A stretch of 64,000 nucleotides of DNA from Balanoglossus misakiensis (taxonomy: Eukaryota; Animalia; Hemichordata): contig CM082590.2 in the NCBI GenBank assembly GCA_040954595.2, positions 7,192,001 through 7,256,000 of the forward strand, in the 5' to 3' direction. Each line of letters begins with the position of its first letter. Positions within the stretch are counted from its first letter, which is position 1. This document shows, one piece after another, positions 15,201-50,816 of this stretch. The notes below the pieces were generated by a model. The model was not told the origin of the DNA and did not search any database. It saw only the letters and a list, made by a program, of their open reading frames with translations. The translations under genes and the position numbers were made by a program.

Positions 15201-15236
<36 letters not shown>

Positions 15237-15300
15237 TGTATGTATGTATGTATGTATGTATGTATGTATGTATGTATGTATGTATGTATGTATGTATGTA

Positions 15301-15335
<35 letters not shown>

Positions 15336-15370
15336 ATGTATGTATGTATGTATGTATGTATGTATCTATG

Positions 15371-15415
<45 letters not shown>

Positions 15416-22300: not shown

Positions 22301-23564
22301 TACATACATACATACATACATACACACATATTACAGAAATACATAAGAAACAATTTCAAATATTTCAATATTTCAATAGCTTAAGTGATTTGTTTTACAG
22401 TATTTAATTGGTTTCTTAAAATCGACACTGTTCGAAACATGTTCTTTAATCCTCAAAAAATAGAATAATTATTAGGGCTTTATAATAGAAAACCTAAAAT
22501 CCTGGTGTCATGTGTGTCAGCAGGCCAGAGTAAAAATAATCTCTGTTATGCCGAAGGGGGAGGTTACATATTAATTATTCTATTTGGACCAAACCATTTT
22601 GTGAAAGTGTTTAATGTTCAGAGTGACACCATTTTCACAACTTGGGACATGAGCTTACCTGCTCTGTAAAAACCGAAGGACATTTTCCTCGTGGCCGGTC
22701 GCTTAGCAACCCAAAGGGCAAAGAGACTGATGAGGAAACTGGCGAAGTCGCTGAGAAGATGGGCAGCGTCCGTCATTATAGCCAGACTGTTAGCAATGTA
22801 TCCACCTGTGCATAAAAACAAGAAAAACAGAAATAATTCTATGTATTTTAACTAAAACCTCCACCCACTCCAGAAATAAAATGGTTCTTCCCTACCGGAT
22901 GTGTTGGTTACTTCCGGTCACCAGCGATCTGTGTCGTTTTCGGGTTTCCAAATGCACATTGCGATACTGAACACCATCGAAACTGTGCATGTTCGAAATC
23001 GCGTCAAGATCTTGGTAAATAAACGCTTAAAAACTCAGGCAAGGTGACCTTGAACCCCAAAACATGGCAGTCTACTGCGCACAAATGTTTGTAACAATCG
23101 CCTGTTCATTTCTACGGCCACCAACTTGTCAAGTCTCAACTTGAGTCAATTACTGCGCAGAGAAATCCAATCGCACACTCACCTACGATTTCAGCCACCA
23201 TGAAAACCAGGACTAAACAACAAGCGCAGATCAGCTGATTGCGAGCTTTGTCTGACATGCTCGGCGCCTGTCCGGTGTGGCAATGGTGGTCCTTCGCTCG
23301 CAGTAAATTGACCAGCGTGTCGTCGCTGTCCGACGGGCAGATCAGCGGCGCGTCGTCGTCGTCCCCGTCGCTGATCTCCTCGTCCCCGTCGTCCCTCAGC
23401 TGCAGTCGCGGGGAGTCCCGGCGGCTCATGTTGCCCCGTGAGATCGTGAACACCGGCGGATCGTCGTCGTCGTCGTCGTTCAGCAGGGCCCCGTAGTGGT
23501 TGCCGCGAAAATCTCCCAGCTCGCTTCTTACAACAAACAACTCCTGAGCGTTCGCGTTCGCCAT
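19351..23564 (-). CDS. SLC30A2: Zinc transporter, SLC30/CDF family, ZnT2/3/4/8 subfamily
   Basis: Exons 23564-23183, 22805-22659, 22188-22035, 21474-21117, 20867-20762, 20198-20064 and 19499-19351. Motifs: HHCH, SLAIMTDAAHLLSD, FGFYRAEVIGA, a His-rich loop, NINVRAAFIHVLGDLIQS, DPICTFLFS, LMEGAP, LHLWSLT, TTIQVE and a C-terminal CxxC. The exact vertebrate orthologue is uncertain. Confidence 0.92.
20222..20640. repeat. Intronic minisatellite, ~40-43-bp unit
   Basis: ttgtttgcaatgatgtacagtgtaatacaaagtaacaaccaca and variants are tandemly repeated. Confidence 0.9.
21545..21891. mobile_element. Kolobok-like MITE family 1 (TTAA TSD, AGGGACAAAG termini)
   Basis: Structure ttaa-agggacaaagtctctctctcgctgcc...ggcagcgagagagagactttgtccct-ttaa. 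Other full or partial copies are near 13630-13815, 14140-14203, 25480-25730, 26935-27148, 34964, 38925-39628 and 42940. Confidence 0.8.
21907..21991. mobile_element. Tiny (~85-bp) piggyBac-like MITE
   Basis: Structure ttaa-ccctttcac...gtgaaaggg-ttaa. Related copies are at ~19067-19230, 20905-20996, 56205-56372 and 59535-59624. Confidence 0.7.
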
Positions 23565-26424: not shown

Positions 26425-28912
26425 ATGATGGAGTTGACATCTGCCAAGAAGGTGATGGTTTTATTGGTGGCGATAATGGTGCTTATTGTTGTTCTGATTG
26501 AGTACAAAGGCCAGCTAAGTGTAACACAATTAAGACCCGTGAGTGATATGGACCTACAAGCTCAGATTCCAAGAAGGTGAGTTTGTTACCACTGCGAGGT
26601 AAATACACCCTTTTCATAAGTCTACCGCCCTCACACAGCCATCGCGAATTTGAACTCAAAGCAAGGCTAATGGGAAATCCCGATTGGTCAGCTTTCCTCA
26701 TTGGCCTCGCTTGTGACATCATACACGGTATTTACATAAATTTGCATGTGGCTGAAAATGTTTTCTTCTGTTGTTCATAGCTCACCTGAACCAAGTAGTA
26801 CTCAATCACATTCAGAGGTGGCATATCTACCAGAAGACCCAAGGAATGCGACGAGCTTGGCTGAGCTAAAGTAAGTTTCTTGCGGATGGACAGAGTCCGA
26901 CCTAACTACCTACCTACCTACCGACTTAACCATTTAAAGGGACAACTCCCGTCAAAATGAATAAACAGTAAATACCGATTATTCATTTTGGCGAGTGTTT
27001 CACTCTCGTGTCTACAAGTGGGATGGAAGTTGTGTGTGGTCAAACGTTCATTCATGATATATCCACATGTAGAATAACATAAATGGTGTCTTGTATCAAA
27101 CACAATTAATGGAAAAAGGGCAGCGAGAGAGAGACTTTGCCCCTTTAACTAACGAACGAACGAAGGTACAAACTGACTAATTCGCTCACCCACTCACTCA
27201 CTAACTAATTCCATTTCACATTTTCTATGAATCAGATTCTCTTTGTGAAGTTGATATAAATTGCAGAAAATTAATTAATTAATTAAATATTTTTATTGTT
27301 TTATTTTATTTATTTACTTATTTATTTTCAGTCATTTAATTTCTTTATACTAGTACATTTTTTGCTTTCGTGTTTCCTGTCTAGGAACATCATCTCTAAA
27401 AACTTAACTTTGGAAAACTCGTTAGCAATATTTCGCTCCAACGCTGCCTTGGATTTAGTTCTCAATAAAGGATTCCCCCAGGATGCCACAGAACCGGATG
27501 CCCCTCTTTCTAGTCGCGCCCGGATACTCTATGATATCCTATTCTCCACCCTGAAACAACAGAAGTCGTGCGCATTGGTGGGAAACGGTGGTATTCTCAA
27601 AGACAGCGACTGTGGACGTGAGATAGACAGTCATGATTTTGTGATGAGAGTAAATTTACCTAAATTAATTGGATTTGAAAAGGATGTTGGAAAGAAAACT
27701 GACTTACAAGCTTTCAACCAATATGTAGGCATCGATTTGGCTAAAGCCGTCGGCCAGACGACAAAGTCAAAAAGAAAGAAAAAACAGAATTTACCAGATA
27801 TCTTGGAGAGGCTTGCCAACCTACACAACTCAACTGTTTGGTTTCCCTATAAGTTGTCAGGATGGAACGGTACACTCAACAATTCAATCGTTATGATGCA
27901 GAACATATTGAGACAAACCAAGTTGGGGGTGATAGCTATGGACTACAGCGTTGCATACTCTCCGGTACCATTATGGCCGGATATAATGAACAGGTACGTG
28001 ACTTCACACAAACAAACACAAACATAGTCTCGGTTACCCAGAGCCCTCTGCTTCTTCCGTTGGGCACTCCAGAAAGAAGGTCTGGGGAAACCCCATAGAC
28101 AAATCTCAGGGCAAAGATGGCCGACTCGGGACAGAAGTGGTGCATGATGGTTGCAGACTCGAACATTAAAAATACATTCTGAGACGTGCTGGACCTGCTG
28201 AAACTGTCTACAAATTGAAAAGAGAAAGAGAAGTTTGGTAAATGGTTTTCTAATATCGTCATATCATAATATCGTATGTCATAAATGTTGTCCGTCATGC
28301 ATCGCTTTTGTCCCGACTCAGCCATCTTTGCCCTGAGAATTGTCTATGGGGTTTCCCCAGACCCTCTTTCTGGAGTGCCCAACGGAAGAAGCAGAGGGCT
28401 CTGGGTAACCGAGACTAACACAAACAAAGAAAAAATGGCAGAGACAAACAAACAGACAGAGACAGACAGACAGACACATGGACACACAAAATGACCCACA
28501 ACCACACGATAAATTGTAGAACGTAGGATCTGCTAATGAAAATGTAAGGCCGAATTATGACTAATAAACGGAGAATTCAAATAATATTTTGATGACGAAA
28601 ATACAGTTCGCATCCCAAGCTACCAACGTAAAATTAAACGTTATATTTTTCAGAATATGGAACAAAATCAAAAACAGCGAAGGTTTTACACTGTTTACCA
28701 TGTCGACGCTTTTCTGCGAGAAACTGACTCTCTATGGATTTTGGCCCTTTTCTGAGGACTCGAGAGGGCGCAAGTTGAATCATCACTACTACGAGAATTT
28801 CATCTACAATGCCAGCACAAATAACGCCATGCCTCCGGAGTTTGAAATTTTGAAAAAATTCAATCGCTCAAATGTCATAAGTCTCGTTACAGAGAAATGT
28901 ACTAAGCACTAA
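26425..28912 (+). CDS. ST8SIA: ST8Sia-like (alpha-2,8-sialyltransferase type, GT29) type II membrane protein, paralogue A
   Basis: Exons 26425-26576, 26781-26870, 27385-27993 and 28654-28912. N-terminal signal anchor; sialylmotif [32 protein letters not shown]; motif S SEGF...[14 protein letters not shown]; motif III HHYYE; VS-like NAMPPEF; C-terminal Cys as in ST8Sia enzymes. Confidence 0.88.
28025..28417. mobile_element. AcademH-like MITE (TAGTCTCGGTTACCCAG family), 9-bp TSD
   Basis: Long TIRs tagtctcggttacccagagccc... / ...gggctctgggtaaccgagacta; TSD acacaaaca at 28016-28024 and 28418-28426. Confidence 0.88.
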
Positions 28913-30106
28913 GTAATACCGTTTTCAACACCCATTTCGAAGTTCTGGTTTGGCACATGCGTAGACGATCGTTGCCCTTTAAAGGCAATAGATCGTCTCA
29001 CGCGCATGCGCGTAACTTCCATTCAAATAGTGGACTTCCAGCCTTATTACATGCGCACCGCATAAGTAGATTCTGGTTTTGTCCCTCCTTTTCACCCAAG
29101 CTGGTGTCTTTTCCCGATCTCCGACACAGATTATGGTCGCCGCCATCTTCTCTGTTGTTAGGACAGAGCACTGCCTTATGGGATTGACTGTTCACTATTA
29201 AGGCATATGATAAATGTTGAAACGACCCAAAACGGGCCAAAACTAGCCCAATGACCATAAACCGACTGAAACTGCATTAGAGTGCCGCTGCCCATGGCCA
29301 TAGTGTACAGACAATACACTCGTAAGAATTGAACGATTTCACGTGTTAGATGTTACCGACAGCAATGAATATCATTCAAATTGAAGTATCCAAATGTGAC
29401 ACCACCATCGTCGCAAACCACGGCCCTTTTACGGAAGCGCTCTGCTCCCCGCAAAAAGGCCGTGGTATAATACGGCCATGTATTCAGTATTTGGTCTAGG
29501 CGCTTTCATAGTACATCCAACAACCAATCAGATTGCTTGTTATATCCCATTCACGCATCTCATTACATCTCATTCTAAACAACATGGCGGCTTCCAGTGG
29601 CAGTGCTCTGAGTCTGAGTGAGAGCGAAGAGACGGGCTTTGATTGGCCAGATTATAATGATGTCATCTCATGAATATGCATTACCAATATGTTCAAATAC
29701 CAGCGCGGTACTCCATTTTAACCAGAGTACGTGATTTCGATAGTGAAACGAAAGAAATCCGTAGTCTGGTGGGGCGAGAATGGACACCACAGAAGTTCAA
29801 GAAACTGTCATGTCTCCCAATTAATTGTGGGGTAGAACACGTTCTCGGGTGAGGGTGATGGTGATTGATGAAGAGACGGGCACACGTGCGGAGTGTAAAT
29901 TTAAACGCCGATGACTTTATTTAGAAAGGCCAGCCGTGGACACACACAGGACAAGCCTGCAGTCCCGGCTGGACCAGCGAAACGACCGCACTCCTAGAAT
30001 TCTCCAACTGAAATCCTATACCAAGATACAGAATCATTTTTAAACACATCAAACTGCCCGCGTGGGGTCTATACAAAACACTATTGTTCTTCGCCTAAGC
30101 TGTGAA

Positions 30107-31557
30107 CACAGGGATTTATTCAGGGAACGTTTAAGTAAGAATTATATGATATAAACTGAATAAATTTGTTGTCGGTCAACTCTTCTGTCTTTGTCTTACC
30201 GATACGGTTCTAACCGGAACACTAAGGCTTCACTGCTCATACACTACACATTATAAACAATGGATGATAAAATGTGCCCTCTTTTGGTGAACTCTGCCTA
30301 CCGCCTGACCTTCTACCTAGCTATGTCTAGTATAGTCTCGGTTACCCAGACGCCTTTGCTTCTTCCGATGCTCTCCAGAAAAGGGTCTGGGGAAATGCTA
30401 TTGAAAGCTTGCCTCTCAAGAGGGCGCCCTCAATGACCTTTGGCTTTTCAGAGACGCGGTCAAGAGGTCTCTCCAAATCCGTTTCATTCAACCAATGAGA
30501 GCGCTGAAGTGGCGTTCGATTTAGGGGAAGGTAACTGATTCGTCAATGGCGTTCCACCGGAAGTATCACCATGGTTGCCTACTTACTTCACGATTTCATT
30601 TTTATAGATCGATCGCCAAAAATTGAGATAATCGGAATTATTTTACACGTAATCATAATTTACGAGTACAAGTGTCGTTTGTTGTTCTGAACGTCTGTTC
30701 TACACGTATGCCACGTCACGTGACAAGGACGTTACGCGTACTGATCGAACGTGCACGCGATCCATGCACGCGATGGAACTTCTGTCTGGCATATTAGCCA
30801 ATCATATGAAGCAACATCTTGCATGGTACTAGCCAATCACAGCACGAGCTCAAACGGATTTGGAGAGACATCTTGCACCGCGTCTCTGAAAAGCCAAAGG
30901 TCATTGACGGCGCCCTCTGGAAAGGCAAATTGAAAGCTTTGTAAAACAAAATGGCCGATGTTAGGATTTTGATCATCGCCTGATTGGCTGAGCTGTCAGT
31001 ATGACCCGGGTCACTGCAATAGTTTCGACAATCGTCTACCAAAGATATTTCATATAATTTCTCCAACAATGCTAACAGAGGACGCCTTTTGCCTTTCGCA
31101 TCCATTAACAAGTACCGGTCTCTTGATATGAAGATACGACAAATAATCACACATTGTCGAGAGTCAGTGACCCGGGTCATACTGACAGCTCAACCAATCA
31201 GGCGATGATCAAAATCCTGACATCGGCCATTTTGTTTTACAAAGCTTTCAATAGCATTTCCCCAGACCCTTTTCTGGAGAGCATCGGAAGAAGCAAAGGC
31301 GTCTGGGTAACCGAGACTATGTCTAGTAAGGCATTTAGGCGGTCAGCTGGAGGGGTCAGGCGGTAGGAAGAGTTCACCAAAAGAGGGCGCATTTTATCAT
31401 CCATTGTTTATAATGTGTAGTGTATGAGCAGAGAAGCCTCAGTGTTCCGGTTAGAACCGTATCGGTAAGACAAAGACAGAAGAGTTGACAGACAACAAAT
31501 TTATTCAGTTTATATCATATAATTCTTACTTAAACGTTCCCTGAATAAATCCCTGTG
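30107..31557. mobile_element. Palindromic MITE with CACAGGG termini and 7-bp TSD (P-superfamily-like), carrying a nested insertion
   Basis: ~200-bp inverted arms cacagggatttattcagggaacg... / ...cgttccctgaataaatccctgtg; TSD ctgtgaa at 30100-30106 and 31558-31564. Confidence 0.8.
30333..31319. mobile_element. AcademH-like non-autonomous element (TAGTCTCGGTTACCCAG family), nested in the 30107-31557 element
   Basis: TIRs tagtctcggttacccagacgcc / ggcgtctgggtaaccgagacta; 9-bp TSD tgtctagta at 30324-30332 and 31320-31328. Confidence 0.88.
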
Positions 31558-34164
31558 CTGTGAACGCCGGTAGTCAAAATGTAAATTAGTTACAGCTAGC
31601 CACCAGTACGTAAAATTCTTTATGTGAGTGTGAATTGGTGATTTCGGAAGGAATTTCTGGCGTCCCCGCAGCCCCTAACAACGTCATATTGATGTCATGA
31701 CAAAACAATCTGCTTTGATTTAGTGCCTCCTCGCCCGCCTTCCCCAAAGAAAACTCCAACAGTACGGTGTGCGTGATATATAGTACCACACAATGGTGTG
31801 TACATTGTATATGGGTCACAGTCCTAATCTCTTGATGGACTGTGTGTCTAGGTGAAGCGTGAAGACTCTATGCACATATTTGCAAACTTTTACATGACTG
31901 CAATTTTGCAGCGACAACGCATAGCGGTTCCACACTTGAGGTTTTCGGGACAGCGAAATTGGCAATGCAATGGTGAATTTTCACAAAGACGATGAACCTT
32001 TGGCCCAGCAAACCACGGTTTCAACCTTGACTGGGTCACCTCATGGCATCTCTCACGTAGCTACTACATGTATTATAATGGCAACTCATTTACATGTAGA
32101 ATCCTTTTCTTCAGAGGCGATCCCCTCCATTCGTTATGGTTGAAGTGAACAGGGGTCATATTTCACTATTCAATCATTTTTCTTGGAAGGTGAATAACGA
32201 TTACCCTATACTAGGTATTTGTTGTTGAATAAAAAAAAACACACGCAACGGGGAAATATTGTTGGTTTTCAAATGTTGGTAAATTGTCTCCAATTCGAAA
32301 TTTCAAAACGACCGCCATTCTATGTGGTAGTCTAAGGAGGAAATTTGATGCAGTGATTTTCATGAAAACAAGATATTGAACACCTAGCGTTCTTTTTTTG
32401 CAAAAAGACTCCCCTATATTGCTTAATATAGCAAATATTATATTATACCAGTATATTGATGGTGTAAATCACGCTATTTTATTGGTCGAGACACGACACG
32501 TGACTGTGATATATTCGTCACATACCACAGTCATATATCATAGTCAAAGAACATGCCTTTTTAAAATGTTTTATGCAAAGTTTCAATATACTGGCATAAT
32601 ATAATAGCAATAAAACACCCCCAGCCATGGTATACCACTCGATTTTGACCAGTTCAGTTCTTTACATAGCTCTGTATCAACATGTCCTGTTGCCCTTCTC
32701 AGTGTACACATGTGTTTTAGACATGTTCGAAGCAGGACACCCCCCAGAGTGTGTTGATACAGAACTGCTCTAATCAGTTCTAATTATATTGGAGTTCTTA
32801 TCAGTGTTTCGAGACGCTTAAATGATACCCGTTGTAAATACTTTAAGTGGAACACTGTGACCGTTGTGAGGTCATGTCTGAGACAGTGATGAATGTTACT
32901 CCTTCGCCTTGAAGTGCGCTTGCGCAGAGCAGGTGTGTTCAGTGGTGTTCCGCCACATCCACACAGGTCTGTCGTTGACATCACGCGGACTTTCATATAT
33001 CTTTTCTTGACGGACTTAGCTTTACAAACCCAGCACTAAAATGGAATTGGAAAGATCCGCACAGAATTAAAAAAAAGAGTATAAAATACCCCTTCATAAC
33101 ATTTGAATTGACGTCACCCACAATCTACCTGTGCTGTGTAATGTGACCGACACGGGTCGGTTGCTTCTTGGTATTGAAGTGCGCGTGCGCATAGTCCGGA
33201 ATCGGTGCCGAACAGGCCGGTCGTTGACAATACATAGTGTACAGTGAGGTCTACACCGCCTCTGTTGGAAAATTACTCAGTGTGTACAGTGTTTCTAGGA
33301 TAACTTCCCACCAGAAACCAACAAACCCAGGAAAACTTGCCCTGCTGTGATTTGAAGTATACGCACGAGGGGACAGGACAACCTGTTTTAAACGAAGCAT
33401 GTCGACATATCTGGTAAGTCGATGAGAATAAGAATTTGCAATCCTTGTACTCATGGATTAAAGGTATACGGTCACCGATGCACATTTAGCTACAGTTACC
33501 ATGGCAAACTGAGATCTAGCCAATCACAGAATTTCAGTGGGTGGCACACGCGAAAAAAAGAGCGTCACCATATGTTCTTTAGAACGCTCAAATACGCCAT
33601 TTCAGCCATATATGGGCGTATGTAAATTAGGAGTGACCGTGTACTTTTCACAATTGCACTATATGCTTCATCTAAGGGATTTGGCCAGTTGTCGCACACA
33701 TCAAGATATCGGCCCCTTCAAATCATGTTGCGATAAATGGGAAACTACAGTACACAAGGAAAGGCTAGGTTTTCACTCCTTAGCATGTGAACCTTTCCTT
33801 CAAACCAGATGGTATTTTCAGAATGCGAAATGAAATGTCCCAAATGAATCTTTTAAGCCAAAAAAAGCCCGACTTCAAAATGGATTGTTATACAATGTAT
33901 ATGCAATCTGTATAAACGCAGCCGACCACGGTATGAATGCAAATGGGGTTTAGAGGTTGCTTCTCTTTGCATAGCTATGTACAATGCGCTGAGACGTATG
34001 CGTAGCGCATTTTAAACAATTCTTAATAATAGTGCGATCGTACTGGGCTTTGACTGAGCCACCATGCCAAACAAAGTCTTTCATGCGTTAAACAGTGCGT
34101 CACGAAGAGGGTCTTTGCAAAAATATTGTCCTTGAATGCGTAGCAACTGGTTCAAATCTCTTAA

Positions 34165-34959
34165 GATGGGTCCCTCGTATCTTTTTGCTCGTTGCTATGG
34201 GCCTTTATAGGACACTACACTCAATTTTGATCGAAACCGTTATGAACGTCCGACAAGGGGCTTGTAACTAGTTAAAAATACACACGATTGTGTGCACACC
34301 CCCTGTCCGAGTATGTTTACGGCAGCTACCGCCCGGCCATAGGCCGCCACGCTAATACGGCAAAGCAGCGGTCAGCGATAGCGTGCGCGTCCTGTAACCA
34401 CAGTAACTGGATCGAACGCTAAAAATCCAATGTTTTGTACACAGAGATTTTGTACCGTTCACGAAAATCCCTAAGGCTTTTTTCATAGGCCACGTACGCC
34501 AGTCAAATTTGACCTGCTTGTTGAGAACGCACTTCCACACAGTGTGACGGATCGTTTTTTCGGTTTTCGTCGTGCTAAGAAGCGATACCGGTGGAAGAGT
34601 GCGTCCAAAAACACCCAAAATCGATGACTTTTTCAGGTGTGGTACTGGTATGCTGAAATCGTAGGATACAACGATAATATTCGAAAACAAAATCCGTCAC
34701 GATCTTCCCTGGTTCAAGCAACTAATGAATACGTATCAAGTTCGTTTTTCAGGTCACGGAATAAAAAGCCTTAGGCTTTTGAAATTTGACCTAGCTAATT
34801 TGCATATCAATGGCGTCAGGGGGCGCGCGCTCACAATCGTGCAGATTTTCAACTAGTTACCAGCCCCTTGTTAGACTCTGAAAACGGCTTAGTCCAAATC
34901 GGGGTGTAATGTCCTGCAAAGGCCCATAGCAACGGGCAAAAAGATCCGGGGGACCCATC
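34165..34959. mobile_element. TTAA-flanked non-autonomous element (Kolobok-like)
   Basis: Structure ttaa-gatgggtccc...gggacccatc-ttaa. The same left flank (ctggttcaaatctcttaa) occurs without the element at 25805-25822. A related inverted copy lies at ~60310-60657. Confidence 0.75.
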
Positions 34960-35515
34960 TTAAAGGGACAAAGTCTCTCTCTCGCTGCCCCTTTTCCATT
35001 AATTATGTTTGATAGGGATGTACGTTCAGTAAAATTGAAAGTATTAATTGTGGATTTTTGGGTTCTCCTTTGTATGTATAATGAAAATCCGTAGTAAAAT
35101 ATAGGGGTCACCGCGCTTGTTTTTGAAATACACAGCCATGAATTTAGTCGATAATAGAAGAAAACTGATGACTCAGCATTTTTCACCAATGGTTTGTCTA
35201 TGGGCAAAATTTTTAATGCAATTTATGTCGACCACTATTTTTTATTTGACCAATGAATTTATATTTACTGGACTGAGCTATGTGTAAAATTTCGTGAAAA
35301 TGACAATAGTAGAAGTTTGTTTTCTAGCAATTATCAATGTAATCCTATGGGGAAAAGACGGGTGCGCACAGTTTCCGGTTTATGTTCTGCGCGTACATCC
35401 TTAAGAAAAGTGCAAATTTGGTGATCATCATATATGATTTCATCTTGGAGAAATATATTTTTACAGGACTAACATCGATGTAATTGCCTGTGTACCAAGT
35501 GTGTGCGTCCTTTAC

Positions 35516-37843
35516 ATGATGGGGATGACGTCTGTCCAAAAGGTCTTGTTTCTACTGGCGGCCATCTTGGTTGTTATGTTTGTACTCGTGGAGTACAAAG
35601 GCTTGCTAAACTACAAACAACTGAGGCCTATTGGAAGTAAGAACGTACAAGCTCAGATTCCAAGAAGGTGAGTTTGTCTTGGGACCCCCATGGTAGATTA
35701 CAACCTTATAGGGGTCTCTACCCCTTATTGAGTATGTAAACATTTCTTTTTATTCAGGAGAAAATCGAATTCTTGATCAATCATGTTGATCGCATAAATA
35801 CGTTATTTACATAAATTTGCATGCTAATGATGACTTGGAATGAACCATATGGTCTCCTTTTCTCGATAGCTCACCTGAAGCAAATGGTACCCAACATCTT
35901 TTGCAGGTGAAACATCTACCAGAAGACCCAAGGAATGCGACGAGCTTGGTCGAGCTAAGGTAAATGCCTTATTCGTCAGTGCCTACCCTAATCCACAGCT
36001 TGGAAACTGTTTAGCATAGTCACTGATGATCAAAAACATGTGAACGTCGAAGTTTTCAAGGGACATGTACACTGTACATGTATACAAGTCTAGCGCCCTC
36101 ACGACGTCATAACTGAGGTTTAATGCCCATAACTATTTCACAAAATTAAAGTTTGTGAGGATATAAAAATTGTGGACTATTGCACACTTGCAACCGGTAC
36201 AGTTTGTATTCAGATTTAATTTATAAGGCATCACACCCTTCCAAACGATATGGCAATGAAATAGAACATGATAATTTGGTAAGAGTTTTTACACTAGGTT
36301 CTTTGCCTGATGACAGGAACATACTACATGTATATGGGCACATCCGAAAATATGAAAATATGCCAAATATTCATTCATTCATTCATTCATTCATTCATTC
36401 ATTCATTCATTCATTCATTCATTCATTCATTCATTCATTCATTCATTCATTCATTCAGTCAGTCAGTCAGTCAGTCAGTCATTCATTCATTCATTCATGC
36501 ATTCATTACTTCATTCATTCATTCAGTCAGTCAGTCAGTCATTCATTCATTCATTCATTCCTTACTTCATTCATTCATTCATTCAGTCAGTCAGTCAGTC
36601 AGTCTGTGTTTATTTATTTGTTTTTTAATTGTCAATCATTTGATTTCTCCACATTTGTTTTCTGTCTAGGAACATCATCTCAAAAAAGGTCACACTGGAA
36701 AACTCGTTTGCAATATTTCGCTCCAACGCGGCCTTGGATTTAGTTCTCAATAAAGGATTCCCCCAGGATGCCACAGAACCGGGTGCCCCTCTTTCTAGCA
36801 GCGCCCGGATACTCTATGATATCCTATTCTCCACCCTGAAACAACAGAAGTCATGCGCATTGGTGGGAAACGGTGGTATTCTCAAAGACAGCGACTGTGG
36901 ACGCGAGATAGACAGTCATGATTTTGTGATGAGAGTAAATTTACCTAAATTAATTGGATTTGAAAAGGATGTCGGAACGAAAACTGACTTACAAGCGATC
37001 AACCAAATTGTGAGCATCTACTTGTATGAAGCTTTGAATCCGGAAGAAAATTCCACAAGAAAGTCCGAAGGAAAGAAAGGTCAGGATTTGTCAGATATCT
37101 TGGAGAGGCTGGCCAACTTACACAACGCAACTGTTTGGTTTCCATATAGGTTGTCAGGATGGAACGGCAAACTGAACGAATCAAAACTGATGATGCAAAA
37201 TGTGCTCAGACAGACGAAGTTTGGATTGAAAGCTATGGATTTCAGAGTTGCATACTCTCCGGTGCCTATATGGCCGGGAACGATGAGAAGGTGAGTTGAT
37301 TCATTCATTCACTCATTCATTTGTTCGTTCGTTCCTCCATCCATTCCTTCCTTCGTTCATTCATTCATTCATTTCCCACATTCATTCATTCATTCATTCA
37401 TTCATTCATCCATCCATTCTATTATCCATCCACCCACCCATTCATTTATTCATTCGTTCATTCATTCATCATTTCATTCGTTCATTTGTTCATTATGAAT
37501 TTCTAAACAGGGAATTTTTAAATAATAATTTGATGACGAAAAGACTAAATGGTCGAAATGTACTTTAACAACTTAACTCTACACCTTATATTTTTTCAGG
37601 TTATGGAACAAAAGCAGCAGCGAGGGTTTTATACTTTTTACAATGTCGACACTTTTCTGCGAGAAACTGACTCTCTATGGATTTTGGCCCTTTTCTAAGG
37701 ACTCGAGAGGGCGCAAATTGAATCATCACTACTACGAGGATTTGAGGTACAATGTCAACTCAAAAAACATCATACCTCCGGAATTTGAAATTTTTCAAGA
37801 CTTTAATCGCTCTGACGTCATAAGGCTTGTCTCGGAGTGCTAG
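35516..37843 (+). CDS. ST8SIA: ST8Sia-like GT29 protein, paralogue B
   Basis: Exons 35516-35667, 35870-35959, 36670-37290 and 37600-37843 join in frame. Same sialylmotifs as paralogue A; VS-like NIIPPEF. Confidence 0.88.
36369..36604. repeat. (ATTC)n/(AGTC)n microsatellite
   Basis: Directly visible; related degenerate tracts are at 37298-37495 and, inverted, 45895-46073. Confidence 0.95.
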
Positions 37844-38924
37844 GCAATAAATGATACGAACGGCATGTCTCATTTCGAAGTTCTTCCATCTTTGTTTAGT
37901 GGAAGTCAATACATCCTTTGATAAGGGCAGTCTGTTGTACACGATGTTGACTGTATAGATCGGAAACTTCACAGTTGTAGAGAAAACTCGTGAATATTTT
38001 CGCGACACATATTGTCTTGTATTTTCCTGAAACATTTATACAAAGTTCCTGACGAAATTTCAAGGTCATTGACCTCGGTTGACCTTTCAAGATATAGAAA
38101 TGAGAAAACATGTGGCTTCTTTTCTATGAAAGTGTACTTTTTATTATTTTTGTATTATCATAAAAGCTCTATGTAGGTGTACGCTGATTGAAATACAGTA
38201 TTGTGATGTTTATTCAAGAGTTTATATTCATATTTCAGCATGAGTGGTAAAAATCAAAACACTCTATTGTTAAAAAAAATCTCCATAACAATAAACTTGA
38301 TTCATTATAGCGTTTGTTGCAGTTGTCTGATATTTAAGGGGCACGACCACCTAAAATTTACATATTTCCATTTATGGCAAAATTGGCGTATCTGTAGTTA
38401 CAATGGCAAATTGAGATCCAGCCAATCACAGATTTTCAGTGAGTGGCCCACGAGAAAAAAGAGCGCCTCCATCTGTTCTTTGGAACGCCCAAATTCTTTA
38501 CTATCAATCACGTGATCTGGCAATGTTCCCCATGGCGCAGTCATTTCCAGATGACGGGCAAGCAATATTTCGGCATCCAGTAAAAGTTTTTCCGAGTATG
38601 TTTTTACTTTAGAACCGCCAAACACGTAACATGTATCAGGTATGGTATCTCATCAGCCTCGTTGCATTTCATCTGCACAGTCTTTGTCTGCACCACGTAA
38701 GTCCACGTTGCTGAAGTTGCCCGTCATCTGGAAATTTGAATGCGCACGTAACTGCCGCCTGAGCGCGTCTGACGTCATTTGATAGCGAAGAATACCCCAT
38801 TTCGGCTATATTTGGGCGCGTGTAAATTGCTCGCTGAACAGTCTCTGTGCTTCTTTATTTTTCGAGTTACCCCCACCTGTCTTATCAGCTGCTAATCCAG
38901 AATACAAACTATCGAAATTTCCAT

Positions 38925-39628
38925 TAAAGAGACAAAGTCTCTCGCTGCCCTTTCCATGAATTATGTTTGATACAAGACACGTACCGTTTATGTTATTCTA
39001 CATGTCGATATATAGTAAATTAATGTTCAACCACACACAACTTCCATCCCGTTTGTAGGATATGAGAGTGAAAATCTCACCAAAATGAATAATCGGTGTT
39101 TAACATTTATTCATTTTGGCGAGATTTTTATTCTCATATCCTACAAACGGAATGAAAGTTGTGTGTGGTTGAACGTTGATTCACTATCCACATGTAGAAT
39201 AACATAAACGGTGTCTTGTATCAAATATAAGTAATGGAAAAAAAGGGCAGCGAGAGAGAGACTTTGTCCTGGGAGGTGTGTGTGGTTGAACGTTGATTCA
39301 CTATCCACATGTAGAATAACATAAACGGTGTCTTGTATCAAATATAAGTAATGGAAAAAAGGGCAGCGAGAGAGAGACTTTGTCCTGGGAGGTGTGTGTG
39401 GTTGAACGTTGATTCACTATATATCCACATGTAGAATAACATAAATGGTGTCTTGTATCAAACATAATTAATGGAAAAAGGGCAGCGAGAGAGAGACTTT
39501 GTCCTGGGAGGTGTGTGTGGTTGAACGTTGATTCACTATATATCCACATGTAGAATAACATAAACGGTGTCTTGTATCAAACACAATTAATGGGAAAGGG
39601 GCAGCGAGAGAGAGACTTTGTCCCTTTA
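38925..39628. mobile_element. Kolobok-like MITE family 1 copy with its right end tandemly amplified (~118-bp units)
   Basis: The block gtgtgtggttgaacgttgattc...gagagactttgtcc occurs four times, joined by tgggag. The array is bounded by ttaaagagacaaag and gtccctttaa. Confidence 0.8.
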
Positions 39629-40533
39629 AGCACCTGCTAGTAAATAGTAAATATTGAATGCCTCGGAATATTCCGCCATTTCGAAGAATGAGTGAATATA
39701 GAACAACGGGGTGCATGCATGCCGTTTCGTTGCAATCAAGTAATGGAGAGCGCCCTCAGCGTCACTGTTGAGAAACCAAGATGGCAGCCTCCAACAAGTT
39801 CCCAACGGCTTTGTAAGCGAACTCTTATTTTGGGGGTCTTTGTGGGGTCATTTACGTGTTTGATGGTCGTGTTTGGGTCGTTCGGGTTCCTTTTGGCTCG
39901 TTTCATAATGTAGCAATGCCCAGCTAAAGTATCGTTCAGACGTCCCAGCTAGTATTCTAAAGTAGTCTTTGTAATATTCAGTCATGGCGGAGAGAACACA
40001 CTTTATTACCAAGTGTACTGCGCATGCGTATGGATGACATCATGCACATAAACAACATCCCATTGTGTTACAGTCTTTGCGGGGAGAATGAGAATTTTTT
40101 TACTGCCAAAAGTAGACCATAAGGGACTAATCGTGAGGAGAATGTAAAACATATTCCACAGACTTATGTTGAATTCTTCGAGGCAATCTTGACATGTTCA
40201 CATATGACCCACGGCATTCTCTCATTTCCAAGGGTCCGGCAAACAACATGGCGGCTACCAGTAAAATGTCAGAATAAGTTTATACTTTAGACTCGCCAGA
40301 CACGTGACATGTATCTGGCATGACGCCTCATCAGCGCCCTCAGCGGCATGGCGTTTCATCTGCACATCTGCACAGTCATCCTCGCACCGCGTTGCAAAGC
40401 ACTGGAAATTTGACCACGTGACTGCGTCTGACGTCATTTGATACCACGGGATAGTATAGTGACTGGTTATTCTGTGTACAAGGCCGTCAATCAGCTTGGG
40501 AACCATCGAAAGGCGTGTTGCAGTTCGTATTAT

Positions 40534-43379
40534 TCAGCGATAGACACATGTCTCCGAGACAAGCTTTATGACGTCAGAGCGATTAAAGTCTTGGAAGATT
40601 TCAAATTCCCGAGGCATGATATTTTTTGAGGTGACATTGTACCTCACATCCTCGTAGTAGTGATGATTCAACTTGCGCCCTCTCGAGTCCTCAGAAAAGG
40701 GCCAAAATCCATAGAGAGTCAGTTTCTCGCAGAAAAGTGTCGACATTGTAAATAGTACAAATCCCTCGCTGCTGTTGGCTTTGTTCCATATACTGAAAAA
40801 TAACAAGTGTAATTTTACGTTGATTATGTAGTTTACGACCATTTATGTTTATTCCCCCTCCCCAAATTATTGTTTAACGCTTTAAAGGGACAAATTCATA
40901 CATGGCTTTGTCTCTTTAATCACCAAGATTCAGTCGTTTGGGCAGATCTAACGTATTTAACAAATGATTGGTGGTTGGCTAGTTTGTCCGTTTGTCTGTC
41001 TGTCTGTTTGGCTGTTAGTTTGTTTATGAAAGAGAAAGCACGTACCTCCTGATAGGTCTCGGCCATATTGGTACCGGAGAGTATGCAACTCTGAAATCCA
41101 TAGCTTTCAATCCAAACTTCGTCTGTCTGAGCACATTTTGCATCATCAGTTTTGATTCGTTCAGTTTACCGTTCCATCCTGACAACGTATATGGAAACCA
41201 AACAGTTGCGTTGTGTAAGTTGGCCAGCCTCTCCAAGATATCTGACAAATCCTGACCTTTCTTTCCTTCAGACTTTCTTGTGGAATTTTCTTCCGGATTC
41301 AAAGCTTCATACAAGTAGATGCTCACAATTTGGTTGATCGCTTGTAAGTCAGTTTTCTTTCCAACGTCCTTTTCAAATCCAATTAATTTAGGTAAATTTA
41401 CTCTCATCACAAAATCATGACTGTCTATCTCACGTCCACAGTCGCTGTCTTTGAGAATACCACCGTTTCCCACCAATGCGCATGACTTCTGTTGTTTCAG
41501 GGTGGAGAATAGGATATCATAGAGTATCCGGGCGCTACTAGAAAGAGGGGCATCCGGTTCTGTGGCATCCTGGGGGAATCCTTTATTGAGAACTAAATCC
41601 AAGGCCGCATTGGAGCGAAATATTGCAAACGAGTTTTCCAGTGTGACCTTTTTTGAGATAATGTTCCTGCACGAAAAACAAGACCGAGGCAAGTGTGATG
41701 AAATGAAAAAAGAATACATTTCATCAAAAAAAAAATGATAATAGCTAGTTAATTTCCAAAAACGATTAATAACACAATATTACATTCAGTCTGACCTATC
41801 TTTTGTTAAAACACCTTTTTAATTATGAACAGTACACTCAACATGATATCTTTTCGCTTTTTTTTGCAGTTGATATAAAACCAATTTATTAAATTATTTA
41901 GGACTCTGACGAATTTGGCTGGTACCCTGCCTCGGTGACAAACACCAACGAGGCTAGTCTCGGTTACCCAGAGCCCTCTGCTTCTTCCGTTAGGCACTCC
42001 AGAAAGAGGGTCTGGGGAAACCCGGTAGACATATCGCCAGGCGGAATCGGGACAGCTGCGATGCATGACGGGAGATTAATATTCCAAAATGGCGACGTCC
42101 TGCGCGCGAACCCACGGCCGACATGTATGACATACGATAAAGAAAACATGCTGAGAAGTGCTAGACCTGCTAAAACTGTATACAAATTGAAAAGAGAGAG
42201 AGAAGTTTGGTAAATAGTTTTCTAATATCGTCATATCATAATATCGTATCGAATATTAATCTCCCGTCATGCATCGCAGCTGTCCCGATTCCGCCTGGCG
42301 ATTTGTCTACCGGGTTTCCCCAGACCCTCTTTCTGGAGTGCCTAACGGAAGAAGCAGAGGGCTCTGGGTAACCGAGACTACAAAGAGGCAGGTAAACACA
42401 AACCGCCATATTTAGAATTGTGGAATCTGATTGGCTAAAAAATGAACGTTCAATAACTTCCGGGCTAGATTCAATCTGTCGCGTTTCTTGACATTCATTT
42501 GTACTCTTCCCGAATGTCATATTTTTAAAAAACCAACAGTTTATGATGGAAGTTATACTAAAATCAATTCAACTACTAACACAAATGTACGTAAGTTTTA
42601 CAACAGACATGCGCATTAGCCCACTTCCGGAGTGTCAAAAAACTAACATATTACAAAATGGCGGTCGGCCTTTATCTGCGTCTATCTTCGTGACGCGTTA
42701 TTTTGCCTAGTGACGTGAGACGCAGTGTTCAGCGAACTGACGAATACGGGAACTTACCTTAGCTCGACCAAGCTCGTCGCATTCCTTGGGTCTTCTGGTA
42801 GATGTTCCACCTTCAAAAGATGTTGGGTTCTATTTGCTTCAGGTGAGCTATCGAGAAGATATGGTTCATTCCAGATCATTTGCATGCTAATTTATGTAAA
42901 TAATGTGTATGGTGACCCCCCCTACCCACACACACATATTAAAGGGACAAAGTCTCTCTCTCGCTGCCCCTTTTCCATTAATTTTATTTGATACGAGACA
43001 CCGCTTATGTTATGTTATATATTTGCGCCAAAGAATTTTTTATTTATCTGGTTAAAACTTGCATATGCAATCATACCCGGAATTAATAGTACTGGTGCAT
43101 ACATCTGTATACGCTAATAGTAGTATAGTTTGGAAAGTAATTTCATGATAATTTCTCAAAAGTTGCAGCTGTAATCAAAGGGCTTTGTAAAATTATTTTA
43201 TTGCAATACACAGATTTAAACACTCACCTTCTTGGAGTCTGAGCTTGTAGGTACCTATTTCTCTTGGGTCTCAACTCTGTTAGGTTTAGTTGGCCTATGT
43301 ACTCCATAACTACAAAAATAACAACCATTATGGCCACCAGTGAAACCATAACATTCTGGGCAGACGTTAGCCCCTTCAT
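40534..43379 (-). CDS. ST8SIA: ST8Sia-like GT29 protein, paralogue C
   Basis: Exons 43379-43228, 42847-42758, 41666-41046 and 40792-40534. Same sialylmotifs; VS-like NIMPREF. Confidence 0.88.
41955..42380. mobile_element. AcademH-like MITE (TAGTCTCGGTTACCCAG family)
   Basis: TIRs match those at 28025. The flanks caacgaggc and caaagaggc form a 9-bp TSD with one mismatch. Confidence 0.85.
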
Positions 43380-45530
43380 ATCCAAACCGTCAGGATTGGT
43401 GCAGATGTAATTCCTGAAAACAGAAACATTTTCTTCGAGAATGAAAATATATATGGCGCTCAGCAAACGCTAGATTTGTTTTCAACAACAAAAGACAAGA
43501 TGTTTAGCCCTACTTTCGACTCAGAGATTTTCAGATCATAGACTTTTATCCATCTGTTTGTCCATCTATCAACACGTGGGATAAGCGACTAAAAGGATAA
43601 ATTCTCTGTGTTCAAGTCACAAAAGTGTGACCGTGGTATTATATATAGATACCTAATGTGAAGATGGTGAGCCCTACAGACTATTGTAGTACACTATTGA
43701 TCAGATAAGACTTTAAGACGTAAGACGTAGCCGCAAATTTACATATCTGTTGTTTTGGCTAACCGACCGTAATAAAAACTATGCAAATCTACCATGGAGA
43801 TCTGACCTTCCCATTTGCTTATTTAACAATCCATTTTGAGACTTCGTCAGCATAAAAACACCTCGTTTTAATAACACATGGTTAATTTTGGATATCTCAT
43901 TTCCCTGTCTATTTTAATATCCGTCCGAAGCAGAGCTATATGTAGTTGGAAATATCTTGGATTTCGTTAACTAGTGTAGTTCCTTATTCACTGTTAAAAA
44001 TTGAACAGTTGAGTTACACAGTGATGTAAATACGGTCGATACCTCGATGTTGACAACTGAAAAAACATTAGACAAATCTTAGACCACAACACATGTGAAA
44101 CGATAAACAACTTTTGTTAATTCTCGTTTGCATTTACTTACCTGCTATATGTCGACTTGCTTCGTTTTTACTTGTGTGGTCGTGTCCCCTCTCGTGAATA
44201 CGTGCACTGCAAATGGCAACTAGGGAATGTTTTGCGGGTTGGTTGGTTTTTGGGGAGGGATGTTGTCCTACAAACACGCACTGAGTTAGTAGTTGGTAGG
44301 CCGTTGGTACAGACATGGAGGTACTAAAGAGACACTGTACATCGTGTGAAGTCCTACAGGTACTAGGTAGGCCTGTTGGTCGAGTGTTCAGTAGACCCAG
44401 AGTGTGGTGTGAGGGAACACCGTGATATTCAGGGAAGAACCTGTTGATATCTGAGGGGGGGGGGGGGTCGGGGTTTTAAGTACAATGTCATTTAAATGCG
44501 GTTGTTTTCAGCCTCTGTTACAGCAAATTTATTTGCGAATGCCAGCCCTCCTTTTTCCTCAAGGTACTGCAGAAGCAATATGTTTTCCTCGGCACCACTG
44601 CCAACAAACATTCCCCCTCCAAGAATACTCCTCCCCCCCCAAAATTAAATGGTTCTCCCCTTATGCCCGTTTCCCCCCCCCCCACTCTGACCACCTCATA
44701 AACCCAATCAACGCCTATTGTTATTTCAGTTATACCAGTCTAACGTGAGATTAATTACGCAACAGGCACAATTAAGGTTTATAACGTCCCTTTTTGTTGT
44801 ATTCGGTTGATTAAATGACCTCATATGCATTTTCTCTCCTTTTGAAGACTTCAGTATTTACATAAGTGGGGCACAGTCTTAGCTGCAAAGATTTTGTTCA
44901 CAGTACTACCTACAGTAGTGTACCTGGTTGTGTTCGAACAACAACGTCGACCTGGGAGCCCCCGGTACATACAATCACAGTCCCTCAAATAAAGTGCCTC
45001 TTTCTTGAGGGACTGTGATACAATACACGGTCAACTCGAATTTACATACGCCCAAATATGGCCGAAATAGCGTATTTGAGTGTGGTGGCGCTCTTTTTTT
45101 CGCGTGAGCCACTCACTGAAAATCTGTGATTGGTTTGATCTAAATCTGAAATATTATTATAAACTCTTGAATAGACATTCAAATACTGTATTTCAATCAG
45201 CGTACACCATAGAGCTTTTATGATAATACAAAAATAATAAAAAGTACACTTTCATAGAAAAGAAGCCACATATTTTCTAATTTCTATATCTTGAAAGGTC
45301 AACCGAGGTCAATGACCTTGAAAATTCGTCAAGAACTTTGGATAAATGTTTCAGGAAAATACAAGTCAATATGTGTCGCGGAAATATTCACGAGTTTTCT
45401 CTACAACTGTGAAGTTTCCGATCTATACAGTCAACATCGTCTACAACAGACTGTCCTTATCAAAGGATGTATTGACTTCCACTAAACAAAGATGGAAGAA
45501 CTTCGAAATGAGACTTGCCGTTCGTATCAT

Positions 45531-47255
45531 TTAGTGCCTAGCACATTTCTCCGAGACAAGCCTTATGACGTCAGAGCGATTAAAGTCTTGAAAAATTTGA
45601 AATTCCCGAGGCATGGTGTTTTTTACGGTAACATTGTATCTCACATCCTCGTAGTAGTGATGATTCAACTTGCGCCCTCTCGAGTCCTCAGAAAAGGGCC
45701 AAAATCCATAGAGAGTCAGTTTCTCGCAGAAAAGTGTCGACATTGTAAAAAGTATAAAACCCTCGCTGCTTCTATTGTTCCATAACCTGAAAAATATAAG
45801 GTGTAGAGTTACGGTGTTAAAGTACATTTCGACCATTTAGTCTTTTCGTCATCAAATTATTATTTAAAAATTCCCTGTTTAGAAATTCATAATGAACAAA
45901 TGAACGAATGAATGGATGAATGAATGAACGAATAAACAAACGAACGAATGAATAAATGAATAGGTGGATGGATAATAGCATGAATGGACGAACGAACGAA
46001 CGATTGAATGAATGGATGAATGAATGAATTAATTGATGGATGGATGGATGGATGAAAGAATGAATGAATGAATCATCTCACCTTCTCATTGTTCCCGGCC
46101 ATATAGGCACCGGAGAGTATGCAACGCTGTAGTCCATAGCTTTCAATCCAAACTTCGTCTGTCTGAGCACATTTTGCATCATCAGTTTTGATTCGTTCAG
46201 TTTGCCGTTCCATCCTGACAACGTATATGGAAACCAAACAGTTGCGTTGTGTAAGTTGGCCAGCCTCTCCAAAATATCTGACAAATCCTGACCTTTCTTT
46301 CTTTTGGATTTTTCTTCTGGATTCAAAGCTTCATACAAGTAGATGCTCACAAATTGGTTGATCGCTTGTAAGTCAGTTTTCTTTCCAACATCCTTTTCAA
46401 ATCCAATTAATTTAGGTAAATTTACTCTCATCACAAAATCATGACTGTCTATCTCACGTCCACAGTCGCTGTCTTTGAGAATACCACCGTTTCCCACCAA
46501 TGCGCATGACTTCTGTTGTTTCAGGGTGGAGAATAGGATATCATAGAGTATCCGGGCGCTACTAGAAAGAGGGGCACCCGGTTCTGTGGCATCCTGGGGG
46601 AATCCTTTATTGAGAACTAAATCCAAGGCCGCGTTGGAGCGAAATATTGCAACAGTATTTTCCAGGGTTATCCTTTTGGAGATGATGTTCCTGTAAAGAA
46701 AATGTGAATGAGACAAGTGTGATGAAATGCAAAACGATAAAAAGTTTACTCTGTTACCTTCTGGCCTCGTTTTCACGTGTCGTCTGCTTGTACATGACGC
46801 TATGTTTGGAAGGGCGCCCTCTTTATAAATAAAAAATATACGAGCATGGAACTTTACCTCAGCTCTGACAAGCTCGTCGCATTCCTTGGATCTTCTGGTA
46901 GATGTTTCACCTTCAAAAGATGTTGGGTACTGTTTGGTTCTGGTGCAGAGCTAATGAGATTGGAAGATGTGATTCTTTGTAATTTATTTGTGTTACCCCG
47001 GCAACCATTCCATCGAGATAGTACACAAAGCAGCACTTGCTTGAAGAGCTCAGAATACACCATTTCGGCCATTTATAACTTTAATGAGTAAGGTAGTTGG
47101 TCTATAAGTTGAAAAACCCACCTTCTTGGACTCTGTGCTTGGAGATACGTACTTCTCATAGTCAGCTGGCCTTTGTACTCAATTAATATCAAAATAACAA
47201 CCATAATGGCCACCAATAAAACCATAACCTTCTGCACAATACTCAGCCCCTTCAT
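45531..47255 (-). CDS. ST8SIA: ST8Sia-like GT29 protein, paralogue D
   Basis: Exons 47255-47122, 46950-46858, 46690-46082 and 45786-45531. Same sialylmotifs; VS-like NTMPREF. Confidence 0.88.
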
Positions 47256-49027: not shown

Positions 49028-50816
49028 CAGACCCGCCAATAAGTATTTACGCACCTTGAAAATGTACGTTTGACATGAAAAATTATTCACAAAATCGATC
49101 GACTGTAACTTATTTCCGAAAATAAATAACCTACGGAAGGTTTAACCCATTTTAGTCAACACAGATGTGTTGCCGCGCCGAATTTGACTGTATACGCGGC
49201 GAGTTTTCCGGCCAGTGAAAATTCCTATGGTTATTGCAATGGCGGTATACTCATTAACATATCATTTGCATCTCATTAACTTTTCGCGCCATTGTTTCCG
49301 TGGCTAATTTCCCTCTATTCATATTTAAATCTCCACCAATCAGAGCTTTTAAATATAATTACGATTACATTTGGGGGCGGGAAAATCTGCCAGACTTGCT
49401 TATGAATATTCTGATCGAGGTCGTCGGAGGTTGCTGCATAATTTTTGTTTGTAAACATTGGATCAATGAAACCATGCCCAAAGTTCGCGAACTTCCTGAA
49501 TTTGTGAAAGGTCAAATTGAGGCACTGCATAGGCAAGGTTTGAGAAACCGAGAAATCGCAAGGCAGCTTGGAATCACCGAAGGCAGAGTCAGGTACAACA
49601 TTCGGAAACTTGTTCAAAATGGTAGCATGGACAATTTACACTGATCTGGACGGCCAAGGCGAACAACGGAACGGGAAGACCGAATGTTGATTAGATCAAG
49701 CCTGACGGACAGGTTTAAGACGGCCCGTGACCTCCGCGCTAAGTTTCATGAGGACACCGGGAAACTTTTGAGTATGAGCACAATCAAATCCCGATTGTAT
49801 AGAGGAGCCAGACTCCGTGGATGTGTGGCCAAGAAAAAGCCGAAATTACAACCCAGGCACATCGCAGCGCGACTACGTTACGCCTGGCGTTACGTCAACT
49901 GGACACCTGTTCAGTGGTCCCGGGTTGTTTGGTCAGACGAGTCTAAGTTCACCGTGTATAGGAGCTGGGGGAGAGTTTTCGTTAGACGGCGACCCGGCGA
50001 GGAGTACGAAATTGACTGTATCAGTCCCACAGTGAAGTTTGGTGGTGGTAGTGTTATGGTTTGGGGGTGTTTCTCGGCTGCAGGGGTTGGTTCGCTCGTT
50101 CGAGTCGAGAACACCATAAATCGCTGGAAGTACCTAGACATTCTACAAAACGAAATGCTACCATCGGCTTTGAGACTCGTCGGGCCCGATTTTGTGTTCC
50201 AGCAGGATAATGCCCCTGTACATACTGCCTTGGCTGTGAAATCATTTCTACAAAATCCCCAGGATTACGGCTATCCGTTTGACAATTTTACATCGTTGGA
50301 GTGACCAGCCTAGTCTCCTGATTTGAGCCCCATCGAGAACCTGTGGGAGTTAATCGACTTGGACGTTCATTCCCGTCCAATTCACAGCATCGACGACCTG
50401 TTTGACCGCATTGTAACATCTTGGGAACAATTCCAGCAAAATATGTGTCGGAAACTCGTCGACACTATGCCCAAGCGCCTGCGAGAGGTCGTCAGGAGAA
50501 GGGGTGGACATACCCATTATTGACAGTTGTTACGTTCGATTTCACCTCATGAATATTCATGACGTTCTTTGCATTGTTGTTCCCATAGAGAATGGAACGT
50601 TTCGCCGACTCCGTTGCATATCTATATTTACGTCAATATTTCTCGCTCAAATTTAATCGCACATGAAAGATTTTCGCTGTACAACTGTTGTTTCTCGTGA
50701 ATTCATTAAATATTTTTGAATTTTCGCTAAAAACTGTCTGCAAGGTGTGTTATTTCATGTTTCTGAAACGTTTTGACTGCAGAACGTGGGTGCGTAAATA
50801 CTTATTGGCGGGTCTG
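49028..50816 (+). mobile_element. Full-length Tc1-family DNA transposon
   Basis: 28-bp TIR cagacccgccaataagtatttacgcacc at both ends; TA TSD at 49026-49027 and 50817-50818; contains a transposase reading frame. Confidence 0.95.
49474..50523 (+). pseudogene. Tc1 transposase with three in-frame nonsense codons
   Basis: A single frame gives an HTH N-terminus, SGRPR, WSDES, KFGGGSVMVWGCF, FQQDNAPVH, SPDLSPIENLW and GGHTHY. Stops fall at 49642-49644, 50302-50304 and 50311-50313, at positions where R, W and Q are expected. Confidence 0.92.

Follow-up and report, generated by a model that had tools for sequence, protein, structure and literature searches.

Four GT29 genes without the VS histidine

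In a 64,000-nucleotide stretch of the genome of the acorn worm Balanoglossus misakiensis (GenBank assembly GCA_040954595.2, contig CM082590.2, positions 7,192,001 to 7,256,000 of the forward strand; hereafter the window) we found four intact genes of glycosyltransferase family 29 (GT29) that resemble ST8Sia sialyltransferases, in which the His of sialylmotif VS is lost and the Thr of motif S is replaced by Glu. This His is regarded as the invariant catalytic base in all animal sialyltransferases. The feature is genuine, under selection and of ancient origin; by both fold and ancestry the proteins are GT29- and ST8Sia-like. They represent either a natural switch of mechanism inside GT29 or the first natural family of GT29 lectins or pseudoenzymes that we have found described; our tentative preference is for an active inverting Golgi transferase in which, to judge from the sequences, the motif S Glu would replace the VS His as base. 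The genes are candidates for the unusual sialyl linkages of deuterostomes, whose enzymes are an open question (PMC2564942, PMC9630641), and the present "ST8Sia-like" annotation of these hemichordate genes is unsafe. We found no description of a His-less hemichordate GT29 clade in the literature searched, which took in few subscription-only papers, and the supplements of the hemichordate genome paper gave a family count only.

Splicing by coordinates gave each of the four genes (A to D, Table 1) four exons, GT-AG introns and an uninterrupted frame of 363-373 amino acids (aa), with an exon 2 of 90-93 bp, which bore out the open frames reported in a preliminary description of this DNA. All seven exons scanned (gene C exon 3 was outside the scan) matched PF00777 with scores of 43-87 bits, above the gathering cut-off of 23. 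Each protein has exactly four Cys, a hydrophobic N-terminal anchor and 7-9 N-glycan sequons, and the marks of GT29 are present as sialylmotifs L, S and III and the Cys pair of the L-S disulfide. A tblastn search within the window found no fifth copy.

The VS motif reads NAMPPE in gene A, NIIPPE in B, NIMPRE in C and NTMPRE in D, and SEG replaces STG in motif S of all four, in agreement with the substitutions and codon positions given in the preliminary description. When gene A exon 4 was aligned to PDB sequences with phmmer, HQLPAE of ST8SiaIII was paired with NAMPPE and STG with SEG, both motifs being ungapped. Counting along this alignment from His354, the general base of ST8SiaIII (PMC8433944), the Glu falls at the Thr301 equivalent and the second His of HHYYE at the His337 equivalent. 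The VS pattern H-x4-E with its base His, taken as the mark of an active GT29 enzyme (PMC10225777, PMC8433944), is absent from all four proteins; the motif III His and the Asn, Trp and Gly contacts to cytidine monophosphate (CMP) are present. We considered whether another His might occupy the catalytic position and rejected this, as the stretch from motif III to the VS Glu is free of His in all four genes. HHYY has an extra His, but this was likewise rejected as a substitute base, since 29 His-retaining outgroup rows carry it too.

An ancient acorn-worm clade

The closest database proteins to the window genes were all from enteropneusts, namely Ptychodera flava (XP_070564087, XP_070564083, XP_070569919 and others, named "ST8Sia-like" in RefSeq), Glandiceps talaboti (XP_077997352, XP_077997347 and XP_077995071) and Saccoglossus kowalevskii (XP_006815932), with 36-47% identity in the six compared. 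A HMMER search over 1.84 billion representatives gave 4395 matches at E <= 0.001; among the best 150 of these 4395, clade members filled the top places with scores no lower than 281 bits, followed by a row at 211. An ESM Atlas search returned generic GT29 clusters only, and a homolog search with exon 4 alone found none among eight candidates.

We then surveyed the ST8Sia-like neighborhood of GT29 in 189 rows (the four window genes and 185 of 198 proteins, with 13 duplicates, isoforms and fragments dropped), 180 of which could be scored at both sites. In 14 rows the motif S Gly is preceded by Glu, and all 14 lack the VS His; all ten database rows carrying this Glu were named as enteropneust. 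Among the 166 non-Glu rows the His was kept in 160 and lost in six; conversely, none of the 160 His-retaining relatives had the motif S Glu. The feature is not a chance one, as 160 of 166 scoreable non-Glu relatives keep the His. The Glu rows formed one clade in a quick 36-row tree built with IQ-TREE (Shimodaira-Hasegawa-like approximate likelihood ratio test, SH-aLRT, 98) and in a FastTree of all 180 (support 1.0), where the clade also included two degenerate members. Support for its sister group was only 0.40 in the FastTree, and the quick IQ-TREE put a long-branch sea cucumber row as sister, a placement that is unsure. The clade is at least ~370 million years old, because it is present on either side of the split between harrimaniid and ptychoderid enteropneusts (~373 million years ago; PMC4729200). 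The subfamily is older and wider than was apparent from the window alone.

Three clade members from S. kowalevskii (P0063), G. talaboti (P0060) and P. flava (P0107) are degenerate or truncated and lack motif III; these may be pseudogenes or gene-model errors. Four of the six non-Glu rows without the His have unrelated-looking C-termini. The other two are P0098 of S. kowalevskii (XP_006811325.2), with His to Gln in VS, and P0172 of Branchiostoma (XP_078702537), with His to Asp, which clusters with two more Branchiostoma members; neither has the motif S Glu.

Conservation was scored in 15 intact members (four from the window, seven from P. flava, three from G. talaboti and one from S. kowalevskii, excluding one near-duplicate and the three truncated or degenerate members) and compared with 157 outgroup rows. 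The tree of these members has a length of 7.9 substitutions per site, and 48 of 283 columns were invariant. Those identical in 15/15 members include the motif S Glu, its flanking Ser and Gly (S300 and G302 equivalents), the FWPF Trp (W322 equivalent), both HHYY His, the VS Glu and the four Cys that make both disulfide pairs. The motif III acid His was likewise kept in all 15, and the N190 equivalent in 14. Other invariant acids (D162, D165, E179 and E346 in gene A numbering) lie at ordinary motif L and VS positions. The motif S Glu had a frequency of 0.00 in the outgroup rows, and is the sole new invariant ionizable residue in the pocket.

The VS His was absent from all 15 members, and its site held eight residues (Asn in six, Lys in two, Gly in two, and Phe, Thr, Ile, Ala and Gln in one each) and evolved comparatively fast, at a rate of 1.79 (82nd percentile). 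The preliminary description had taken Asn as the defining change. We rejected this, as Asn is confined to the window genes and two P. flava proteins, the other members having one of the seven remaining residues; because the old base position is so varied, the clade signature is "His lost, Glu fixed" rather than His to Asn. Within the window genes and the two P. flava proteins the Asn may still be constrained.

Selection and recent history of the four copies

The ratio of nonsynonymous to synonymous substitution rates (dN/dS, Nei-Gojobori) over whole genes was 0.34-0.46 in all six pairs, and below 1 in each by Fisher tests (p from 4.1e-4 to 6.8e-9), indicating purifying selection. Sub-regions were noisier, reaching 0.76 in exons 1-2 of B and C and 0.72, on few changes, in exon 4 of B and D. 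That the genes might be duplicates decaying under relaxed selection is scarcely credible. The degenerate or truncated P0063, P0060 and P0107 lend this idea some color, as do the only moderate dN/dS values and the B-D exon 4 ratio, but every frame and splice site is intact in genes A-D, dN/dS is below 1 in six of six pairs and the 48 invariant columns extend across three genera. Decay is largely refuted by dN/dS together with clade-wide invariance. The earlier proposal of a subfamily whose active site is altered is supported: the subfamily is real and under selection, it extends to three enteropneust genera, and the Glu is present in 15/15.

The four genes are recent paralogues with 75-88% identity and hence are not independent witnesses of the substitutions. 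Codons ~105-195, which contain motif L, are 97-100% identical in DNA across A-D, whereas for gene A identity falls to 61-85% on either side of this segment; this suggests gene conversion over motif L, a further reason not to treat the copies as independent. Divergence of gene A from B-D peaks between motifs L and S. A 1.6-kb segment that includes intron 3 and the 3' flank is common to genes B and D in opposite orientations (36658-38238 versus 45146-46702; 91% identity), the mark of a recent inverted duplication or conversion. Related elements resembling miniature inverted-repeat transposable elements are present in gene A intron 3 (28025-28417) and gene C intron 2 (41955-42380), with inverted arms of 126-130 nt and 94% and 99% complementarity.

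Candidate mechanisms

An AlphaFold2 model of the P. flava protein P0002, built from a 142-row alignment, had a mean predicted local distance difference test score of 87.6 and a predicted template modeling (TM) score of 0.81. The top PDB matches to this model by Foldseek were ST8SiaIII chains (E 1.6e-19, TM 0.74 by target), and an ST8SiaIII-type fold (GT-A variant 2) is predicted for the clade; P0002 is ~45% identical to the window genes, whose fold is predicted from this model.

In human ST3Gal1 (hST3Gal1), H299 of motif III is the acid and H316 of VS the base, and S268 and T269 make polar contacts to the donor N-acetylneuraminic acid (PMC6884586); T269 is the position of the clade Glu. Set against this enzyme, the clade has kept the acid half, lost the base and gained a carboxylate at a site of contact with the donor sugar. 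We tentatively favor an active transferase: a pure binder would be expected to lose its leaving-group residues, and in sialyltransferases of GT38 and GT80 a Glu or Asp serves as base (E153 in MhPST and D141 in PmST1; PMC5517516). CMP-sialic acid or a related CMP-ulosonate would bind in the usual manner, the motif III His would stabilize the departing CMP, and the Glu would deprotonate an acceptor hydroxyl approaching from a shifted angle. The outcome would be inverting transfer, with an acceptor or linkage unlike that of vertebrate alpha2,8-polysialylation. The intact ST8SiaIII-like fold was counted toward an active enzyme, and the two clade members without Glu, P0063 (GDA) and P0060 (SQG), were counted toward the Glu as a functional residue, since they lack motif III as well. 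Repeated expansion, to seven intact copies in P. flava, three in G. talaboti and four in the window, would be more in keeping with enzymes that diversify than with a chaperone devoted to one task.

Several points weigh against a Glu base. In the P0002 model Glu307 opens a helix (307-315), and a helix N-terminus favors Glu for capping alone. The Thr that was replaced presumably contacts the donor carboxylate, and the Glu may repel or exclude CMP-sialic acid, or mimic the donor carboxylate. Mimicry or repulsion combined with helix capping, giving a pseudoenzyme, is the strongest counter-argument, and one we consider a lesser but serious possibility. The VS His is essential in all GT29 enzymes for which we have found such tests, hST3Gal1 H316A being inactive (PMC6884586) and ST8SiaIV H331K as well (PMC12682141). 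The bacterial sialyltransferases with carboxylate bases have GT-B folds. An analogy to the xED base, an Asp or Glu that opens helix F in canonical inverting GT-A enzymes, was rejected as evidence, the resemblance being only analogy, and GT29 is not alignable with other GT-A families (PMC7185993). The motif L Asn is present in only 7 of the 15 intact members, the site varying between N, S, A and G; this variation is also present in His-retaining relatives, where it is common, and we rejected it as a sign of decay. The survey of His and Glu covariation that had been proposed earlier found a perfect association, yet since the Glu rows are one clade it counts as a single evolutionary event and does not demonstrate co-evolution. 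P0098 and P0172, finally, look like real independent losses of the His without Glu.

Noncatalytic GT29 pseudoenzymes, acting as Golgi or surface binders of glycans or CMP or as partners of active sialyltransferases, are in our judgment somewhat unlikely; on this reading the Glu would cap its helix and plug the usual donor sialic acid site. The inactive His mutants of hST3Gal1 and ST8SiaIV, the unconstrained old base site and the Glu at the helix N-terminus in the P0002 model would all fit, as would the high divergence of gene A from the others in the L-S region, which recalls ligand-diversifying lectins. A single His mutation makes porcine ST3Gal1 a specific lectin, whose S271-T272 influence sialoglycan binding (PMC12274613), but the His removed there is precisely the H299-type motif III His that the clade, like the CMP-side residues, has left unchanged for at least 370 million years. 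The Glu, moreover, is never Asp, Ser or Thr, which seems stricter than helix capping requires.

The replacement of a donor-sugar contact by Glu (PMC6884586) could also be read as an active enzyme with a changed donor lacking a C1 carboxylate and bound by the Glu, or as a base-free reaction on an anionic acceptor (phosphate, carboxylate or sulfate); this we consider improbable. Inverting GT-A transfer to phosphate requires no base (PMC7185993), CMP-3-deoxy-D-manno-octulosonate (CMP-Kdo) has been proposed as donor for plant GT29 proteins (PMC3522684, PMC5811610), and ST8SiaIII crystals contain cytidine diphosphate and cytidine triphosphate, according to the PDB entry titles. Against a changed donor, a Pfam scan of the window found no donor or pathway candidate gene, and motif L is otherwise of the standard CMP-sialic acid type.

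Very unlikely, in our view, is a retaining double displacement in which the Glu would attack donor C2 to form a covalent sialyl-enzyme, giving a beta-linked product or trans-sialylation. It draws on the invariant carboxylate close to the donor sugar and on the retained acid His, but the other invariant acids are at ordinary positions and, to our knowledge, there are no beta-sialoside glycans in animals, which counts against it. The precedent is WbbB (GT99), with Asp232 as nucleophile and His265 as acid, but WbbB additionally requires a second invariant carboxylate, the base Glu158, and GT29 is an inverting family (PMC9587256). If true, this would be the first carboxylate catalysis in GT29 at its most radical, known for bacterial beta-Kdo transferases and not for animals.

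Features of the window

The window is eukaryotic and intron-rich. Apart from the four GT29 genes it contains satellite arrays, other genes and a transposase (Table 1). The flavin oxidoreductase gene resembles, we presume, FOXRED2.

Table 1. Coordinates of the GT29 genes, their active-site codons and other features, numbered from the first nucleotide of the window
Feature	Coordinates	Strand	Description	Basis
Gene A	26425..28912	+	369 aa; exons 26425-26576, 26781-26870, 27385-27993, 28654-28912	splicing; PF00777 on exons 3+4
Gene A motif S Glu293	28679..28681	+	ST8SiaIII Thr301 position	phmmer alignment
Gene A motif III His328	28784..28786	+	retained (acid/phosphate His)	phmmer alignment
Gene A Asn341	28823..28825	+	VS catalytic-His site (= ST8SiaIII His354)	phmmer alignment
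Gene B	35516..37843	+	368 aa; exons 35516-35667, 35870-35959, 36670-37290, 37600-37843	splicing, Pfam
Gene B active-site codons	37622-37624; 37766-37768	+	Glu296; Asn344	
Gene C	40534..43379	-	373 aa; exons 43379-43228, 42847-42758, 41666-41046, 40792-40534	splicing; Pfam on exon 4
Gene C active-site codons	40767-40765; 40623-40621	-	Glu297; Asn345	
Gene D	45531..47255	-	363 aa; exons 47255-47122, 46950-46858, 46690-46082, 45786-45531	splicing, Pfam
Gene D active-site codons	45764-45762; 45620-45618	-	Glu287; Asn335	
87-bp satellite array	1-2750		orientation flips at ~1240; 14.3 + 17.4 copies; 94-96% matches	
168-169-bp array family	3562-5925		follows the 87-bp array	
Short-chain dehydrogenase exon	8063-8308	-		Pfam adh_short
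Flavin oxidoreductase gene	11234-15640	+	multi-exon	Pfam Pyr_redox_3
Cation-efflux SLC30/ZnT-like gene	20700-23500	-	His-rich loop	
Tc1/mariner-type transposase	49258-50301	+	stop divides two same-frame open reading frames	HTH_Tnp_Tc3_2
C2H2 zinc-finger gene	54450-56618	-	~10 fingers	
Repetitive open reading frame	58521-59441	-	307 aa; may be upstream exon of the zinc-finger gene	no Pfam match

Comparison with known systems

Carboxylate catalysis with CMP-ulosonate donors and a His acid is known from GT38 MhPST (base Glu153), GT80 PmST1 (base Asp141) and GT99 WbbB (nucleophile Asp232) (PMC5517516, PMC9587256). These are unrelated GT-B folds with no homology to the clade, whose proteins may work in a like manner.

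The closest PDB match by both sequence and fold is human ST8SiaIII, a vertebrate ST8Sia (CAZy GT29, PF00777; PDB 5BO6-5BO9). The window proteins have in common with it the type II anchor, motifs L, S and III, the VS Glu, YGFWPF and two disulfide pairs that include the C-terminal Cys; they differ in having only ~23-24% identity, in the loss of His354 and in the change of Thr301 to Glu. They also lack the Arg/Lys-rich loop that ST8Sia proteins have ahead of motif S, the net charge of the 32 residues before this motif being +2 to +5, versus +7 to +8 in three ST8Sia rows. Membership of the ST8Sia group is indicated by the four Cys and by the quick tree, in which the clade grouped with ST8Sia-like rows apart from ST6GalNAc and ST3Gal (SH-aLRT 98). 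The polysialyltransferases ST8SiaII and IV, under whose names relatives are entered in RefSeq, are a separate branch, and the window proteins do not have the basic polysialyltransferase domain that marks these enzymes ahead of motif S, the charge there being +8 in a II/IV-like row.

The enteropneust proteins named "ST8Sia-like" in RefSeq belong to the same clade and have SEG and the loss of the VS His; the names are automatic, and the two nearest proteins alone share the VS Asn. The clade nests in a large set of ST8Sia-like rows of non-vertebrate type, apart from the ST8SiaIII-, II/IV- and mono-ST8Sia-like rows. A similar group, ST8Sia EX, was described by Harduin-Lepers (2008, PMC2564942) from amphioxus and sea urchin, with tandem expansions in invertebrate deuterostomes, no polysialyltransferase domain and proposed unusual linkages; "histidine" and "Saccoglossus" are absent from that paper. 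The neighboring rows, most of them unnamed, keep the VS His, unlike the clade, which to judge from its position in the tree probably derives from the ST8Sia EX expansion.

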